From Terriglobia bacterium (GTDB taxonomy: Bacteria > Acidobacteriota > Terriglobia > JAJPHL01), in assembly GCA_021325275.1 (NCBI GenBank), contig JAJPHL010000035.1, positions 54,916 to 118,915 on the forward strand: a DNA stretch of 64,000 nucleotides, given 5' to 3'. Below are positions 3,573 to 54,921 of this stretch, piece by piece. Under the pieces are notes generated by a model. That model had not been told where the DNA came from, made no database searches, and was given only the letters and a program-made list of their open reading frames with translations. The position numbers and the translations under genes are program-made. Position 1 is the first letter of the stretch; each line of letters starts with the position of its first letter.

Positions 3573-3586
3573 GAGGACCGGAAAAA

Positions 3587-3672
3587 GCAACCGCAGATGA
3601 ACGCAGATAAACGCAGATGGAGATGCAAGGTTTGGTCTTATCGGCGTCCATCTGCGTTCATCTGCGGTTGCT
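3587..3672. repeat. REP-like long palindromic element, family A copy 1 (arms GCAACCGCAGATGAACGCAGATAAACGCAGATGG / CCATCTGCGTTCATCTGCGGTTGC)
   Basis: Near-perfect inverted repeat around a ~25-nt loop. The same element recurs at 33316-33392 and 38621-38700. It lies in the intergenic gap between the DUF350 and speE-like genes. Confidence 0.8.
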
Positions 3673-3681
3673 TTTCTTGTT

Positions 3682-7573: not shown

Positions 7574-8854
7574 TTAAAGTTCCGTGGCCACATCAACCTT
7601 GAAACGGCCTTTGCTGACATGCACATCGAGGCGATCGCCCGGCTGAACCTGCGAGGGATCGCGCACCAAGCTGCCGTCGGCGCCGGCCACGAGCGCATAT
7701 CCGCGATCGAGTACGGCTTGCGGTCCAAGCTGCTGCAACGCGGCGGCGGATAGGGTGAGGCGCGAGCGTTCACGCTCCAAACGCAGATGCACAGCGTGGC
7801 GCAATCGCGTAGCGAGATCGGCGGCACGCACACTTCCAGCATGCAGTCTTTGGCGGACATCTTGGCGCATCAGGCGGCGGTCCAGTTCGTCCACCGCGCG
7901 CCAGAACCTTTGCACGCGATACGCGGCCGCTTTTTCCAGCGCGAGACGCAGCGAGTCGATGCGGCGATGCAGATCCACTTTGCTTGCGATCACGAGTTCC
8001 GCGGCGGCCGAGGGCGTCGGCGCGCGGAAGTCCGAGACAAAATCGGCGATGGTGAAATCGGTCTCGTGGCCGATGGCGGAAATCACCGGGATGCGCGACG
8101 CCACGATGGCGCGCGCGATCGCTTCTTCGTTAAATGTCCAGAGATCTTCGAGAGATCCGCCGCCGCGCGCCAGAATAATCACGTCGACCTCGCCGCGAAG
8201 CTGCCGGTCTCCCGGCAAACTAAAGTATTTCAACGCTTGGACGATTTGCTCCACCGCGCCTTCGCCCTGCACGCGCACCGGATAAAGGAGCAAGTGCAGA
8301 TTCTCGAATCGCCGCTGGAGAATCGTGATCATGTCGGCGATCGCCGCGCCCGAGGGTGAGGTGATGAGTCCGATGCGTTGCGGCAGCGCGGGAATCGGCC
8401 GCTTGCGCGATTGTTCAAACAGTCCTTCTTTGGCGAGACGTTGCTTGAGTTGCTCGAACGCCAATTGCAGCGCGCCGAATCCGGCGGGCTCCATATGTTC
8501 GACAATGATTTGGTATTCGCCGCGCTGCTCGTAGACCGTGAGGCGTCCGCGCGCGGTGACGCGCAGGCCGTCGGCCGGCTTCAGCCGCGAGAGTCGCAGG
8601 GAACTGCGGAACATGACGGCGCGAAGCTGCGCCGTGTGATCCTTCAATGTGAAGTAACAGTGTCCGGACGCGGCGGACTTGAGTCCCGAGATTTCGCCTT
8701 CCACCCAAACGTCGGCGAACTCGCCCTCCAGCGCGTCTTTGATCGCTTGCGTGAGGTCGGCGACGGTGTAGATGGAGCGCAATTTGGAGTGCGGCGACTT
8801 GTCGCCGCTTTGGATGCCCGCGGCTTGACGCGGGCCGGGGTGCAAGCAGTTCAA
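7574..8854 (-). CDS. xseA: Exodeoxyribonuclease VII large subunit
   Basis: OB-fold N-terminus (IYTVADLTQAIKDALEGEFADVWVEGEISGLK), catalytic region RGGGSLEDLWTFNEE, coiled-coil C-terminus. Confidence 0.85.
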   Translation of the reverse strand: MNCLHPGPRQAAGIQSGDKSPHSKLRSIYTVADLTQAIKDALEGEFADVWVEGEISGLKSAASGHCYFTLKDHTAQLRAVMFRSSLRLSRLKPADGLRVTARGRLTVYEQRGEYQIIVEHMEPAGFGALQLAFEQLKQRLAKEGLFEQSRKRPIPALPQRIGLITSPSGAAIADMITILQRRFENLHLLLYPVRVQGEGAVEQIVQALKYFSLPGDRQLRGEVDVIILARGGGSLEDLWTFNEEAIARAIVASRIPVISAIGHETDFTIADFVSDFRAPTPSAAAELVIASKVDLHRRIDSLRLALEKAAAYRVQRFWRAVDELDRRLMRQDVRQRLHAGSVRAADLATRLRHAVHLRLERERSRLTLSAAALQQLGPQAVLDRGYALVAGADGSLVRDPSQVQPGDRLDVHVSKGRFKVDVATEL

Positions 8855-8915
8855 AGCAGGCGCGCGGTCAAGCCTCGCGCGTCGAAAGCGGCGTCAAGCC
8901 GCCGCACTCCAAGAA

Positions 8916-11390: not shown

Positions 11391-11550
11391 GGATGCTTGA
11401 AAGAGAGCCTATCGCAAGGTGCTAGAATGCTCTAGTTTAACACGGGTATTAGCCACCGAGACACGGAGAACACCGAGGAAAAACACCGACATCTCTCGCG
11501 GTTTTGTTTTCTCCGTGATCTCGATGTCTCGGTGCCTAATTTGGTTTTTT

Positions 11551-12600: not shown

Positions 12601-12688
12601 GACTTTTCAACCAGAAAGACACAAAGGACACAAAGAAAACCTTGATCCGGCGGTTATTACGTGCCACGATATTACGCGAGGCGTAATA

Positions 12689-26266: not shown

Positions 26267-26581
26267 ATGCCTTTTGAATACGAACGCGAAGAGGAAGAGT
26301 TGGAGGAACTGGAAGCGGGATCCGAATACGAAGCCGAGGAGGAAGAGATGGACGAAATGGAAGGAACCATGGGCGAAGTAAGCGCCCCAGTGGAGTCTGC
26401 TCCGGTCGACGTGCCCGCTCCAGCAGCCCCCAAACCGAAAGCCAAGCCCAAGGCCAAGGCAAAGCCAAAGGCCAAACCCAAAGCCAAGGCCAAGCCCAAG
26501 GCGAAGAAGGCCGCGAAGAAGCCGGCCAAGAAAGCCAAGAAGGCTGCCAAGAAACCGGCCAAGAAGAAAAAGAAGAAGTAG
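26267..26581 (+). CDS. Histone H1-like lysine/alanine/proline-rich protein with acidic N-terminal half
   Basis: N-terminus MPFEYEREEEELEELEAGSEYEAEEEEMDEME is highly acidic. C-terminus is (KAKPKA)n then AKKPAKKAKKAAKKPAKKKKKK. Codon periodicity is clean and a strong promoter/RBS lies upstream. Confidence 0.6.
   Translation: MPFEYEREEEELEELEAGSEYEAEEEEMDEMEGTMGEVSAPVESAPVDVPAPAAPKPKAKPKAKAKPKAKPKAKAKPKAKKAAKKPAKKAKKAAKKPAKKKKKK
26434..26505 (+). repeat. Tandem 18-nt repeat (AAGCCCAAGGCCAAGGCA-like) encoding KAKPKA units
   Basis: About four degenerate 18-nt units inside the histone-like gene. Confidence 0.6.
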
Positions 26582-33305: not shown

Positions 33306-33315
33306 CTCGGAAAAA

Positions 33316-33392
33316 AGCAACCGCCGATGAACGCAGATAAACGCAGATGAAGCATCGGTTTTATCCGCGTTCATCTGCGTTCATCTGCGGTT
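33316..33392. repeat. REP-like palindromic element, family A copy 2
   Basis: GCAACCGCCGATGAACGCAGATAAACGCAGATGAAGC ... GCGTTCATCTGCGTTCATCTGCGGTTG. Lies between the convergent esterase and degP genes. Confidence 0.8.
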
Positions 33393-33403
33393 GGGTTTCG
33401 TTC

Positions 33404-37051: not shown

Positions 37052-38701
37052 TTAGTGGGAAGCGGTGCGCGCGGGGCCGTACAGCACCTTTCCAGGACGC
37101 GCGGCCGTAACCGTTTTCCCGTCGAAAACCACTTCGCCGTTCACGATCACGGTGGAAAAGCCTTCGGCATATTGGTGCGGCTTGTCGAACGTGGCGAGAT
37201 CGCGCACACGGTCGGGATCGAAGACCGCGATGTCAGCCTTCATGCCTTCGCGCAACAATCCACGATCCGCCAATCCGAGGCGCTGCGCGGGAAGCGTGGT
37301 CATGCGCCGCACTGCGTCTTCCAGGGTGATCACTTTCTTCTCGCGCACGTACACGCCCAACACGCGGGCCCACGTTCCGTAGCTCCGGGGATGCGGCGCT
37401 TCTTTGCCGAAATTCGGAATTTCGCCGTCGGAGGCGATCATCGTGCCCGGATAACGCAGAATTCGCACCAGATCGTCTTCACTGATGGCGTGAAAAACGC
37501 CTTGGCAGCCGCCTTTCTCGACGATCCACAGCGCGGCCTCGGCGGCATTCTCGACCGTCGGGGAATTTCCGCGAAGTTGGGCGACCTCCGCTAAATTCTT
37601 TCCCGCGAGTGACGTATCCCAGTCGCAGCGCGACAACACTACGTTCTTGGGATCGCCGCCGCCGCGTTCTTCGCGAATCAAGCGCGCCGCTTCCGTTGCG
37701 ATTCGGGCGCGCGTCGCCTGATCCTTCAGGCGTTCGAGGACGCGCGCGCGTCCGCCTTCTTGCGCCCATGACGGAAACAGCGCCGCCTGAATGCTGGTGC
37801 TCGACGCCGTGTACGGATACTGATCCACAGACGCGTCCACGCCGCGGCGTCGCGCTTCTTCGATCAAGCGAATCGTCTCCGCGCTCTGTCCCCAGTACGT
37901 CTTGCCGATGATCTTGTGATGCGTCACTTGCGTCGGTAATCCGCCGTTCTCGCCGATGGCAATGGTTTCCTTGACGCTATCGACCACGTGCGACGCTTCG
38001 TCGCGCATATGAGAAATATAAATCCCGCCAAAACGTCCGGCCACGCGCGCGAGATCCGTGACTTCCTCGGTTGAGCTGAAACTCCCCGGCACGTAGAACA
38101 ATCCCGAGCTGAGACCGAACGCGCCGTCCTTCATTCCCTGCTCGACAAGCGCGCGCATTTGGGCCATTTCCTCGGGCGACGGCTTGCGGTCAACTTGGCC
38201 CATCACGGCTTCGCGCACCGAGCCTTGGCCGAGGAACGCGCCGATGTTCACGGATTTTCGCAACGCCTCGAGCTGCGCGAAGAACGGGGCGATCGGCACG
38301 GGTGAACTACCGTCGGGTCCTTCGATCAGCGTGGTGACACCTTGGCGAATGTAATTGTCAGCGGTGGGAACGTTGAAAATGTTGCGGCGCGCGTGACTGT
38401 GGATGTCGATGAATCCCGGCGCGACGACTTCGCTGTGTACGTCGATGGTTTGCCGCGCCGGTTCGTCGATCTTGTAGGCGATCCGCGCGATGCGGTCGCC
38501 GCGAATCGCAACGTCGGCGTGATACCAAGGATTCCCGCTGCCGTCGATGACACGCGCGTTCTTCAGCAGCAGATCATATGGTTGCGCTTGCGCGAACAAG
38601 ATGCAGGAAAAAAGAAAAATGCAACCGCAGATAAACGCGGATAAACGCAGATGGGCGATTGGTTTATGTCTGCGTTCGTCTGCGTTCATCTGCGGTTGCA
38701 T
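37052..38701 (-). CDS. D-aminoacylase / N-acyl-D-amino-acid deacylase (amidohydrolase superfamily), secreted
   Basis: LLKNARVIDGSG...ADVAIRGDRIARI, metal site GFIDIHSH, catalytic region ISHMRDE. The first ~27 codons of the track ORF are encoded by REP copy 3 and are probably not translated; the true start is likely a non-ATG codon before the signal peptide IFLFSCILFAQA (~38620). Confidence 0.8.
   Translation of the reverse strand: MQPQMNADERRHKPIAHLRLSAFICGCIFLFSCILFAQAQPYDLLLKNARVIDGSGNPWYHADVAIRGDRIARIAYKIDEPARQTIDVHSEVVAPGFIDIHSHARRNIFNVPTADNYIRQGVTTLIEGPDGSSPVPIAPFFAQLEALRKSVNIGAFLGQGSVREAVMGQVDRKPSPEEMAQMRALVEQGMKDGAFGLSSGLFYVPGSFSSTEEVTDLARVAGRFGGIYISHMRDEASHVVDSVKETIAIGENGGLPTQVTHHKIIGKTYWGQSAETIRLIEEARRRGVDASVDQYPYTASSTSIQAALFPSWAQEGGRARVLERLKDQATRARIATEAARLIREERGGGDPKNVVLSRCDWDTSLAGKNLAEVAQLRGNSPTVENAAEAALWIVEKGGCQGVFHAISEDDLVRILRYPGTMIASDGEIPNFGKEAPHPRSYGTWARVLGVYVREKKVITLEDAVRRMTTLPAQRLGLADRGLLREGMKADIAVFDPDRVRDLATFDKPHQYAEGFSTVIVNGEVVFDGKTVTAARPGKVLYGPARTASH
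38621..38700. repeat. REP-like palindromic element, family A copy 3
   Basis: GCAACCGCAGATAAACGCGGATAAACGCAGATGG ... TCTGCGTTCGTCTGCGTTCATCTGCGGTTGC. Lies between pepA and the D-aminoacylase gene, same strand. Confidence 0.8.
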
Positions 38702-40156
38702 TTAGCTTTTCTCGAAGCCCATCGCCAACTCGATCAATGACCGCACGGCGATCCCCGACGATCCCTTGGCGATAAACGCCTTGTTGTCGTCGATCCACGC
38801 GCAGCCGGCGATATCGAGGTGAATCCATGGCGTGTCGGCGACAAATTCCTTTAGGAACCACGCCGCGGTGATCGCGCCGCCGTAGCGTCCGCCGGTGTTT
38901 AGAAGGTCCGCGACCATGCCTTTGATTTGCTCGCGGTAGTCGTCGTCCATCGGCATGGGCCACATTTTTTCGCCGGCGGTTTTGGCGCACTTCAAGAAGC
39001 GTTCCTGATACGCTTCGTCGTTCGTGAAGACGCCGACGTTCACTTTGCCGAGCGCGACGCTGATCGCGCCCGTCAGCGTGGCCGCGTCGATCAAATGCGT
39101 GCAGCCTTGCAGCCGCGCGTAGTGCAAAGCGTCGGCGAGAATCAAACGGCCTTCGGCGTCGGTGTTGATAATCTCAATCGACTTGCCGGACATCGCGATG
39201 CGCACGTCGCCGGGTTTTTGCGCCTTGCCGTCGGGCATATTCTCGGTGGCGGGCACGAAACACTGAATGCGCACCGCCGGTTTCAGCAGCGCGATCGCGC
39301 GCATCGCGCCGAGCATCGCCGCGCCGCCGGCCATGTCGTACTTCATCAGATCCATGGAGTCGGCCGGCTTGATGGAGATGCCGCCGGTATCGAACGTCAC
39401 ACCCTTTCCGACCAGTCCCAGCACGCGGTCCGTCACCGCCGTCTCGGGGTTGTAGCGCAGGTGAATGAACTTGGGCGGCTCCTCGCTCCCCAGCGACACC
39501 GAAAGGAACGAGCCCATCTTCAGTTCCTCGCAGCGCGCGCGGTCGAGGATTTCGCATTCCAATCCCACTTCCGCGGCCATGGCGCGGGCGCGTTCCGCCA
39601 GAATCGTGGGCGTCATGTAGTTGCCCGGCTCGTTCACCAAGTCGCGCGTGAAATTCTGCGAATCTCCGATGATGCGCCCGCGTTCGAGCGCCGCGCGCGT
39701 TTCCGCCGTCGCCGCCGCGGCCACGTGAAATGCGCCCACGTGCTTGTCGTCGGCGCGACCGTCGGTCTTGTAGCGGCCGGGATCGAAGTCGGCGACCAGC
39801 GCGCCTTCCACAGACGCTTGCACCGCCGCGCCGGGATCCGCTACGCCGTCGGGAACAAACGTCATATTGGCAAGCGACTTCGGTTTCAGCAAGCGCACCG
39901 CGACTCCCGCCGCGCGGCGCAGTTCGTATGTTCCGAATTTCTCGCGCTTCCCTCCGCCAATCGCGATGACGCGCTTCGTCGCGATTCCGACGACGTTGTG
40001 GAAGGTGGCCGTCTCGTACAATTTTGTCGGCAGATCGCCGGTTGCGCTCAGCGGCGCCAGCGCGGGGTGCGACGGCGTTTCTTTGTCGAACGCGACAAAT
40101 GCCAGCGCGTCGGTGGAAATGCTTTCGATAGGTTGGTGGTTGAGTTGAATGTCCAT
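38702..40156 (-). CDS. pepA: Leucyl aminopeptidase (M17 family)
   Basis: NTDAEGRLILADAL, VGKGVTFDTGGISIKP, MKYDMAGGAA. Confidence 0.9.
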   Translation of the reverse strand: MDIQLNHQPIESISTDALAFVAFDKETPSHPALAPLSATGDLPTKLYETATFHNVVGIATKRVIAIGGGKREKFGTYELRRAAGVAVRLLKPKSLANMTFVPDGVADPGAAVQASVEGALVADFDPGRYKTDGRADDKHVGAFHVAAAATAETRAALERGRIIGDSQNFTRDLVNEPGNYMTPTILAERARAMAAEVGLECEILDRARCEELKMGSFLSVSLGSEEPPKFIHLRYNPETAVTDRVLGLVGKGVTFDTGGISIKPADSMDLMKYDMAGGAAMLGAMRAIALLKPAVRIQCFVPATENMPDGKAQKPGDVRIAMSGKSIEIINTDAEGRLILADALHYARLQGCTHLIDAATLTGAISVALGKVNVGVFTNDEAYQERFLKCAKTAGEKMWPMPMDDDYREQIKGMVADLLNTGGRYGGAITAAWFLKEFVADTPWIHLDIAGCAWIDDNKAFIAKGSSGIAVRSLIELAMGFEKS

Positions 40157-44157: not shown

Positions 44158-44194
44158 CGTCACTGGAACACGGAAAAGGCCTGTTCCAATAACG

Positions 44195-46093: not shown

Positions 46094-46375
46094 GGCCTAC
46101 GCAATCTAAGGTAGCATTATTGAATGGCTCACAGTTTTTCTCCGAACGAGCACGAGTTGGAGCCGCAACCGGCATCGGGCCGATCCGGCCGCGGAGGGAC
46201 GCGCCGCCCTCGTACGGCGGCCGCCGTCCTCGAAATGCCCGATCCGCCCGAGCGCACGCGCACCAGCACCTTGATGGATCGCTTGCGCGGATTGTTCTCG
46301 CGAAGGCGGAAGCGGAAATAGGTCGAGCGGGCAAGCGCCGATAGCGATATCGATCTCATAAAGCGGTGTGTCCAG

Positions 46376-46503
46376 GTTTTCTCTGCGCCTCTGCGTCTCT
46401 GCGGTGAAAGAACCGCTCGTGGGTGAAATCCTCGTGGGACACGGGCGTAACGACAGGCCTCAGGGGTTTTTCACCGCAGAGACGCAGAGACGCAGAGAAA
46501 ACC
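46376..46503. repeat. REP-like palindromic element, family B (arms GGTTTTCTCTGCGCCTCTGCGTCTCTGCGGTGAAA / TTTCACCGCAGAGACGCAGAGACGCAGAGAAAACC, ~57-nt loop)
   Basis: 35-nt near-perfect inverted arms. The unit CGCAGAGA x3 echoes the CGCAGATn x3 of family A. The loop carries a CTCGTGGG x2 direct repeat. Lies between GDE and aguB, about 58 nt upstream of the aguB start. Confidence 0.75.
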
Positions 46504-46560
46504 TGTTCGGACTCCGCCCGCGATCTGCACAACGCCAGATTCGCGATAAACTATCGAGCG

Positions 46561-54763: not shown

Positions 54764-54921
54764 GAAGAAGATTTCACCACAAAGACACTAAGAACACAAA
54801 GAAAACCGCGCGGCGCCCAGCGACAGCGCGGGGGCGGCGGCGATGGCGGATGAATCCTTATCGCACTTCGCGGCATCTGATAGATTTACGCAAGGGAGAT
54901 TTCAACCAGGGAGGATTTGTC

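Follow-up and report, generated by a model that had tools for sequence, protein, structure and literature searches.

Palindromic hairpins in a 64-kb acidobacterial window

A stretch of 64,000 nucleotides from a Terriglobia bacterium (Acidobacteriota; GenBank assembly GCA_021325275.1, contig JAJPHL010000035.1, positions 54,916 to 118,915), referred to here at its full length as the window, contains four long palindromic hairpins, designated H1, H2 and H3 (family A) and B (family B). They are scattered among ordinary housekeeping genes coding for DUF350 and speE-like proteins, an alpha/beta hydrolase, HtrA, an amidohydrolase, pepA, a glycogen-debranching enzyme and aguB. Elsewhere, arms of the same design enclose a gene of the GxxExxY (PDDEXK_3) family, an association suggestive of a selfish DNA element that has yet to be described. 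Homologs of pepA and speE likewise identified the organism as a member of Acidobacteriota. In all three family A hairpins, the arms follow the plan AACC plus (CGCAGATnAA)x3. Family B is built inside out by comparison: its CACC ends face the loop, whereas the AACC ends of family A point outward. Tandem Repeats Finder assigned a period of 10 to family A and of 8 to B. In an inverted-repeat scan, H1, H2, H3 and B were within the top five of the window by inverted-repeat length. The motif CGCAGAnnnnCGCAGA, with up to one mismatch, occurred 13 times in the window (1.07 expected; count reached in none of 100 shuffles), and 12 of these 13 occurrences were located inside the three family A hairpins. 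An initial annotation, made from the window sequence alone, had placed the four hairpins here and described their gene contexts, and in both respects it was borne out. Its count of four copies in 64 kb missed a hairpin of like design, two solo arms and a mini hairpin (Table 1).

RNA folds of the four hairpins, computed for both strands, ranged from -52 to -90 kcal/mol, with z scores of -7 to -12 relative to shuffled sequences. Individual copies reached -62 kcal/mol (H1, z score of -11 to -12), -52 to -54 kcal/mol (H2) and -88 to -90 kcal/mol (B). Family A copies in the window are bounded by AAAAGC...GCTTTT(T), that is, by an A-tract, the stem and a U-tract on both strands. This is the shape of a bidirectional terminator, a function that had been suggested for one copy. 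Because an A-tract and a U-tract surround a stem of 33 to 45 bp, copies in the genome of the window would probably terminate transcription strongly in both directions or form hairpins at mRNA 3' ends, which we regard as a by-product. Only a tRNA in the window scored above the Rfam gathering threshold, and the hairpin matched only plant microRNA precursors below threshold (30 bits versus 80), as expected for a generic hairpin shape.

The window hairpins are insertions

Comparison with related genomes revealed that the window hairpins are recent insertions without counterpart in relatives. The site of H1 is empty at three loci (L286, L287 and L288) and filled in a fourth (L285). In two relatives with an empty site (speE 83% and 74% identical), the TAA stop codon of DUF350 is directly followed by the TTG start codon of speE, and the empty allele of L286 and L288 reads CACTAA|TTG; the insertion point of H1 is a zero-length spacer in an operon. 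In the window and in the 90% relative L285, ∼107 to 110 nt separate the two genes, corresponding to the hairpin and a few flanking bases, and speE starts with ATG at the filled site versus TTG at the empty one. No duplicated flank indicative of a target-site duplication was found at H1, the single site compared with an empty allele. The orthologous H1 copy of L285 contains CGCCGAT in all 6 units, while the H1 of the window has CGCAGAT in 5 of 6 units and CGCCGAT only in the loop-proximal sixth. In addition, the L285 loop matched the window hairpin better in flipped orientation (alignment score of 51 versus 36.5). The flipped loop and the change of all units between the two lineages indicate arm-arm recombination and concerted unit replacement instead of independent point mutation.

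At H3, the outer right arm encodes the last two codons and the stop codon of pepA, the C terminus of which reads ...LAMGFEKS* in the window and ...LAMGFAE* in relatives. The earlier statement that all copies are intergenic therefore does not fully apply to H3. At this position, relatives have either different hairpins or no hairpin at all. On the other side of H3, the called amidohydrolase open reading frame (ORF) begins at an ATG within the hairpin (38577-38701, minus strand), resulting in a product of 549 amino acids. Its first ∼45 residues (MQPQMNADERRHKPIAHLRLSAFICGCIFLFSCILFAQAQP) represent hairpin sequence in translation and look like a signal peptide; an alternative TTG start is present just past H3. 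In an 89% relative (L225), a hairpin of a different family (GTGGGGCAGGCATCCTTGCCTGCCGC...) at 11454-11523 occupies exactly the place of H3, and another hairpin of a different family is found upstream of aguB (3021-3092 of L225). In this lineage, different hairpin families seem to take turns in occupying the slots offered by gene ends.

The site 3' of the glycogen-debranching gene was found in three states: with a 98-nt hairpin (L225), with the 26-nt mini hairpin (window) and with nothing (L227). As judged from this comparison, the mini hairpin at 44164-44189 is the remnant of the 98-nt hairpin present in L225. A relative whose pepA is 88% identical contains an apparently frameshifted GxxExxY gene that has CGCAGAT arms; the gene is thus present in the lineage of the window. 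Copies far beyond the window and the absence of the window copies from orthologous sites of relatives sustain the earlier view of a dispersed repeat family of the mobile type, as opposed to local duplication.

Arm design and states

The basic plan consists of two inverted arms, each comprising (A/C)ACC and three tandem units of 8 to 10 nt with a conserved core. Core variants included CGCAGAT, CACAGAT, CGCCGAT, CGCTGAT, CGCAAAT, CGCAGAG and CGCAAAACA. When 152 arm occurrences were sorted by state, 25 belonged to hairpins with a loop of up to 60 nt and 12 to hairpins with a loop of 61 to 250 nt. Loops of 251 to 700 nt accounted for 7 occurrences, and loops of more than 700 nt for 2, which represented two separate hairpins on either side of a host gene. 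The remainder comprised 10 partner-less arms with less than 700 nt of sequence available and 96 solo arms that had no partner within 1.5 kb.

Arm substitutions had initially been described as compensated, which turned out to be only weakly true. Window copies contain 3 to 6 arm mismatches each, mostly A/G, and in the alignment of 46 elements, the two arms of one element were 0.51 identical at variable positions, compared to 0.46 for unrelated arms. Strict compensatory evolution between arms was rejected on this ground. In the H1 copy of L285, however, one and the same core base differs in all 6 units. Among 164 arm differences, 116 were transitions, and there was no signal of a one-unit register shift between arms, which was dismissed as well. 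Since own-arm identity barely exceeds that of unrelated arms, each arm is held to a consensus, as expected for a protein recognition site, and not to its partner.

Some hairpins were nested, such as a CACAGAT hairpin inside a CGCAGAT hairpin (L043) and a CGCAGAG hairpin inside a CGCCAAG hairpin (L262/L263); a further case is L091, and L145 displays concentric arm shells around a gene. Whole hairpins inside the loops of others indicate that loops are insertion targets and that arms move together with their interior.

According to rough gene calls, the upstream neighbor of solo arms and hairpins was co-oriented in 37 cases versus 19, the downstream neighbor of solo arms in 23 versus 32, and a position between divergent genes was seen in 5 of 49. 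In two instances (L039 and L096), an ATG within a solo arm is in frame with a downstream argC or livF-like gene; the resulting "MNADERR" extensions may be spurious or real. Such in-frame extensions on argC, livF-like and amidohydrolase ORFs had suggested that solo arms serve as 5' leaders or start-codon donors. We rejected this idea because of the orientation counts, with a downstream bias of only 23 versus 32 and an upstream bias of 37 versus 19. One of the three reading frames through an arm is open anyway.

Distribution across phyla and domains

One genome per GTDB species (596 Gb in total) was scanned with the 19-nt arm pattern AACCGCAGATRAACGCRGA, which was detected in at least 120 genome contigs, many of them from metagenome-assembled genomes (MAGs). 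By our own arithmetic, which assumes uniform base composition, ∼17 chance matches are expected for the entire collection. A third unit, TnnnCGCnGAT, lies outside the search pattern and followed in 90 of the 136 matches listed, for which the chance expectation is 0.008. Among the matches listed, arm-bearing taxa covered ∼14 phyla and two domains. Cyanobacteria were represented many times, including isolates of Microcoleus, Dolichospermum, Anabaena and Scytonema. Other hosts listed were Planctomycetota, Verrucomicrobiota, alpha-, beta- and gammaproteobacteria, Acidobacteriota, NC10, Desulfobacterales, Chloroflexota, Armatimonadota, Bacteroidota, Latescibacterota and one spirochete, and ∼13 of the contigs listed were archaeal (Methanoperedens, Methanosarcinales and "Methanobacteriota"). 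With near-identical arms in Cyanobacteria, Planctomycetota and Methanoperedens, the suggestion that the repeats are specific to the lineage of the window had to be abandoned. Cyanobacterial copies have a 3' flank that is A-rich, not U-rich.

The family A arm pattern was found in 22 further contigs of IMG/VR. One of these encodes a head-tail adaptor (PHROG 442, E = 7e-22) and contains three to four hairpins amid structural genes. The phage-like contigs L134 (IMGVR_UViG_3300042846_000010) and L133 carry three or four family A hairpins per 7 to 11 kb, each between structural genes and directly 5' of the next start codon; such contigs could be vehicles of spread. Two plasmids, both cyanobacterial, carry arms, and none of the cultured phages in INPHARED does. 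Hairpins and solo arms of the family B unit type were present in 51 IMG/VR contigs.

A GxxExxY gene between the arms

Six of the seven loops of 251 to 700 nt contained a single ORF, which in each case coded for a GxxExxY protein (∼130 amino acids); the seventh (L113, 350 nt) held nested arms only. All six loop proteins matched TIGR04256 and PF13366 (PDDEXK_3) above the curated cutoffs (E ∼1e-43), with scores of 146 bits against a cutoff of 35 and 141 bits against a cutoff of 22, respectively. The ORF starts at an ATG inside the left arm (CAG ATG AAC GCA GAT GAA CGC AGA, encoding Q M N A D E R R). Hence, the left arm supplies the start codon and the first ∼10 residues (MNADERR...) of the protein, and the stop codon is located a few bases 5' of the right arm. 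One such arm-GxxExxY-arm element resides between carA and carB of Wenzhouxiangella limi.

To avoid circularity, an independent sample was drawn by protein alone: metagenomes were scanned with the peptide GFLEKVYENA as seed, which yielded 80 GxxExxY loci. The best inverted repeat between upstream and downstream flanks was mostly an arm pair of the same design. Of the 80 loci, 57 had three or more units to the left of the gene and 61 had as many to its right, compared to 8% in background windows of the same loci, and left and right arm types agreed in 55 of 57. Moreover, the N termini of 120 database homologs read M(E/K)PQ(M/I)NADERR, which corresponds to the translated arm. The arms and the GxxExxY gene are one unit. 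No description of an association between arms and GxxExxY was found in the literature by arm sequence, family names or peptide motif.

A gene-bearing element between ruvB and folK (L289-L296 and L085) is shared, with conserved arms, by several related Acidobacteriota populations. Recent transposition of a gene-bearing copy was considered and rejected, as an identical protein in 8 contigs was at the ruvB-folK site in 8 of 8. The same context throughout gives no sign of recent jumps, and persistence of the element at this site in lineages with nucleases that differ by 15% implies that some copies are long-lived. In a MAG of Methanosarcinales (L004), a GxxExxY gene starts right after an arm and is truncated after ∼25 codons; an ORF a short distance downstream resembles an IS66 family transposase by eye, which suggests that a full element has been disrupted in this archaeon.

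The GxxExxY family is large, with 28,915 representatives of 50%-identity clusters (E of 0.001 or less). In an alignment of 40 sequences, D77, K89, Q101 and Y105 were invariant, and E87 was present in at least 90%. The AlphaFold model (predicted local distance difference test score [pLDDT] of 93.7) exhibits a minimal alpha/beta nuclease core, with an arm-encoded N-terminal tail of lower confidence. The closest folds in the PDB were weak matches (template modeling [TM] score ∼0.5) and comprised Cas4 SSO0001, lambda-exonuclease-like proteins, MGME1, AdnA, tRNA-splicing endonuclease and Hjc; AddB-type nuclease domains and I-Bth0305I were also among them. Based on model and residue pattern, GxxExxY is predicted to be a minimal RecB/Cas4-like PD-(D/E)XK nuclease. 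A PDB sequence search retrieved no solved structure, and annotation of the protein with PADLOC (defense systems) and PHROGs returned no match. In the only paper found to include the family, a survey, its function is given as "Unknown," and multiple transfers between bacteria and archaea as well as between phyla are reported (PMC3424549). P0241, P0243, P0252 and other family members are ∼250 to 290 amino acids long and consist of two GxxExxY domains in tandem.

Comparison with known systems

A defining feature of repetitive extragenic palindromic (REP) sequences is the tetranucleotide GTAG (or CGTC), conserved as a tag at one repeat end (PMC3733652). In the 46 aligned elements, neither GTAG nor CGTC was conserved; their arms run from (A/C)ACC to the third unit and consist of three direct repeats in tandem (period of 8 to 10) instead of a palindromic unit. 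As in REPINs (REP doublets forming hairpins), inverted pairs form hairpins, and copies are extragenic and numerous. As in miniature inverted-repeat transposable elements (MITEs), terminal inverted repeats are common to the gene-bearing form, the product of which would have the mobilizing role. There was no target-site duplication at the one site compared, and the interior of loops of 62 to 350 nt was not derived from a parent. On these grounds, the element seems to work like a REPIN or MITE while being a member of neither.

The closest concept is the pair of REPIN and REP-associated tyrosine transposase (RAYT) (PMC3116915, PMC3733652). REPINs and REPtrons are likewise short extragenic inverted doublets in many copies, in which singlets and doublets coexist, the repeats also flank a small gene of the nuclease type, and new copies arise in or next to old ones. 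They differ in that their enzyme is an HUH tyrosine transposase, not a PD-(D/E)XK protein; that the GxxExxY gene lies inside the hairpin and starts within an arm; and that a REP is a small palindrome, unlike three tandem units of 8 to 10 nt. Furthermore, RAYT/REPIN pairs are largely vertical and single copy, whereas GxxExxY is a huge multicopy gene family with near-identical arms across phyla and domains. With MITEs, the hairpins share short, noncoding, intergenic copies that vary in presence or absence between relatives; unlike in MITEs, the encoded protein is of no known transposase type and cannot alone join DNA.

Genes for homing endonucleases of the PD-(D/E)XK class (e.g., I-Ssp6803I and I-Bth0305I), whether free-standing or borne by introns, resemble the present case as small nuclease genes of patchy, cross-phylum distribution, the context of which also occurs gene free. 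Here, however, the context is a dispersed, multicopy palindromic repeat and not a unique conserved host gene, gene-less whole hairpins spread too, and none of the loci compared occurred both as a hairpin alone and in a gene-bearing state. Another parallel is provided by the intervening sequences in 23S rRNA of Leptospira and Coxiella, in which a long inverted-repeat stem surrounds an ORF of ∼120 to 130 amino acids that belongs to a family with multiple copies outside rRNA as well. Their ORF codes for a four-helix-bundle protein, and the sequences reside inside rRNA and are excised by RNase III, in contrast to GxxExxY hairpins, for which rRNA is not involved. Insertion sequences of the IS200/IS605 group, which move as single strands, also have a small protein, depend on hairpins and make no target-site duplication. 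They use HUH chemistry and have short subterminal hairpins that are unlike at the two ends, and they lack long perfect terminal inverted repeats of tandem units.

A nuclease-associated palindromic element as the favored explanation

We consider it probable (roughly 0.65) that the hairpins are gene-less, nonautonomous members of a horizontally spreading, nuclease-associated palindromic element superfamily, in which the nuclease is the presumed driving force. It is a more tentative proposal, with somewhat less than an even chance of being correct, that they represent a previously unrecognized, cross-domain class of selfish elements, consisting of a palindrome with three iteron-like units per arm and GxxExxY as the sole protein, which spreads via nuclease-triggered, repair-mediated copying. 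In the favored explanation, the nuclease, probably as a dimer, would read the three same-face units on each arm and cut at or near the center of the palindrome, be it in duplex, cruciform or single-strand hairpin form. Host repair or recombination could then copy or place the element, whereby the arms, and sometimes the gene, would spread into hairpin loops and gene 3' ends, and gene-less copies would be served in trans. GxxExxY, encoded between the same arms, would also be a concrete candidate for the common binding protein that had been anticipated from the motif shared by families A and B, in place of the RAYT or regulator named at that time.

Several observations weigh against this explanation. 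Solo arms make up 96 of the 152 arm occurrences, and only ∼5% carry the gene, of which there is none in the 64-kb window or in the next 9.5 kb. Loops of 62 to 350 nt gave no match to the GxxExxY profile beyond the arm-encoded residues 1 to 16; with coding remnants absent from loops, an origin of the hairpins by internal deletion from gene-bearing copies was rejected. Between arm type and protein tree, there was only a weak correspondence (62.5% versus 60.7% identity; nearest neighbors sharing the type in 45 of 59), and strong arm-protein co-specificity was discarded for the same small difference. The ruvB-folK element has been stable in place across lineages with nucleases that are 85% identical. 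Family B arms flanking the gene were not seen in the 51 viral contigs, and any link of family B to the nuclease would be one of shared architecture only. Finally, a hydrolytic nuclease alone cannot join DNA.

Part of this would also fit the main rival, which we hold to be unlikely: the hairpins could be the primary replicators, moved by some host or other machinery or by palindrome-prone recombination, and GxxExxY a separate, homing-type selfish gene that parasitizes their loops and is served by the arms as homology. The scarcity of the gene (∼5% of arm occurrences), loops without gene remnants, the weak coupling of arm type and protein phylogeny, a family B without gene link, and loops that are demonstrable insertion hot spots are in line with it. 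Yet gene-holding loops harbored GxxExxY in 6 of 6 cases and nothing else, and start codon and N terminus are encoded by the arm in most homologs, which speaks for one unit of long standing. Whole hairpins nested in others, moreover, reflect arms moving with their interior, which is not a product of pure homology-driven homing, and no alternative mobilizing enzyme was seen near the copies.

The remaining readings, which invoke host function only, RAYT or regulator sites, fit the data poorly. Host-selected bidirectional intrinsic terminators or mRNA-stabilizing hairpins, with functional constraint instead of mobility as the source of cross-genome likeness, are improbable, although the window copies do combine A-tract, very stable stem and U-tract on both strands, solo arms and hairpins in general mostly lie just 3' of co-oriented genes (37 versus 19) and rarely between divergent ones (5 of 49), and relatives of the window organism have other hairpins at the same gene ends. 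Orthologous sites are not conserved in relatives with 74 to 89% protein identity, H1 occupies a zero-length operon spacer where a terminator would do harm, stems of 33 to 45 bp far exceed the needs of a terminator, the 3' flank of cyanobacterial copies is A-rich instead of U-rich, and terminator function leaves unexplained a near-identical 30-nt noncoding sequence in archaea and a dozen bacterial phyla. Even less credit can be given to operator- or iteron-like sites through which a host regulator would control the neighboring genes. A 10-bp period would indeed set the three cores, one helical turn apart, on one face of the helix, and family B and two solo arms are upstream of genes; the neighbors, however, are functionally unrelated, solo arms show no preference for a position 5' of co-oriented genes (23 versus 32), the same sequence is present in unrelated phyla and between structural genes of phage contigs, and relatives lack copies at orthologous sites. 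Mobilization as REPs or REPINs by a RAYT, the enzyme favored in the initial annotation, is the least probable reading and already largely refuted, despite hairpin-forming inverted doublets that are extragenic and multicopy as in REPINs (PMC3116915). The Y1 transposase family was absent from the Pfam-annotated calls of L121, L281, L283 and L284, which together account for most of the window, the gene found between arms elsewhere codes for PDDEXK_3 and not for an HUH enzyme, the GTAG/CGTC tag (PMC3733652) is missing, arms are tandem direct repeats and not palindromic REP units, and cross-phylum spread is unlike the mostly vertical inheritance of RAYT/REPIN.

GxxExxY/PDDEXK_3 is among the larger families without known function, and its link to a defined DNA partner now provides a role that can be tested. 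Were the more tentative proposal of a new class of selfish elements correct, the role of mobile-element nuclease would fall to PDDEXK_3 (∼29,000 clusters at 50% identity), and the intergenic hairpins that are widespread in soil and freshwater bacteria would represent nonautonomous progeny of the element. Mobilization of hairpins by this nuclease would constitute a new enzymatic route to REPIN- or MITE-like repeats in bacteria and archaea, without target duplication. In abundant soil phyla, the placement of very stable hairpins into operons and gene ends should reshape both mRNA stability and the termination of transcription. The hairpins are also a source of systematic annotation errors, such as ORFs extended through hairpins, "MNADERR" N termini on host genes, and altered gene ends (pepA).

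Positions of elements and further repeats in the window

Table 1 Hairpins and solo arms in the window, with their structure and neighboring genes
Feature	Position	Strand	Arms or sequence	Loop	Neighbors	Method or folding
H1, family A	3583-3675		AAAAGC-AACC-(CGCAGATnAA)x3; 36-nt arms, 92% complementarity	21 nt	Spacer between DUF350 stop (3682) and speE-like start (3572), both minus strand	Inverted-repeat scan
H2, family A	33313-33398		39-nt arms, 85% complementarity	8 nt	Convergent: alpha/beta-hydrolase gene (+, ends 33305), HtrA/DegP-like protease gene (-, ends 33404)	Inverted-repeat scan
H3, family A	38607-38713		45-nt arms, 84% complementarity	17 nt	pepA (38702-40156, -), amidohydrolase gene (-)	Inverted-repeat scan
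B, family B	46373-46505		(CGCAGAGA)x3, period 8; outer ends GAAAACCTG; 37-42-nt arms, 93% complementarity (42-nt arms)	49-59 nt	Divergent 76-aa ORF call (-, starts 46359), aguB (+)	Inverted-repeat scan
Hairpin of like design	11448-11540		GCCACC-(GAGACA/CGGAGAACA/CCGAGGAAA), period ∼9		sucC (-), next gene (+)	-46 kcal/mol, z -6.2
Solo arm	12608-12641	+	CAACC-AGAAAGA-CACAAAGGA-CACAAAGAAAACC		Starts 8 nt 3' of stop codon of upstream + strand gene	Tandem Repeats Finder
Solo arm	54773-54807	+	TTCACC-ACAAAGA-CACTAAGAA-CACAAAGAAAACC			Tandem Repeats Finder
Mini hairpin	44164-44189		TGGAACACGG-AAAAGG-CCTGTTCCAA; 26 nt		3' of glycogen-debranching gene	

Two further repeats of the window are of other kinds. 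A long palindrome at 8784-8912, between ndk and the gene for the large subunit of exonuclease VII, has 46-nt arms (TTGGAGTGCGGCGACTTGTCGCCGCTTTGG...) with 87% complementarity and contains no tandem units; it looks like a separate dispersed hairpin family. At 26430-26575, a coding tandem repeat of GCCAAG / AAGAAGGCCGCC units would encode a low-complexity stretch rich in lysine and alanine.

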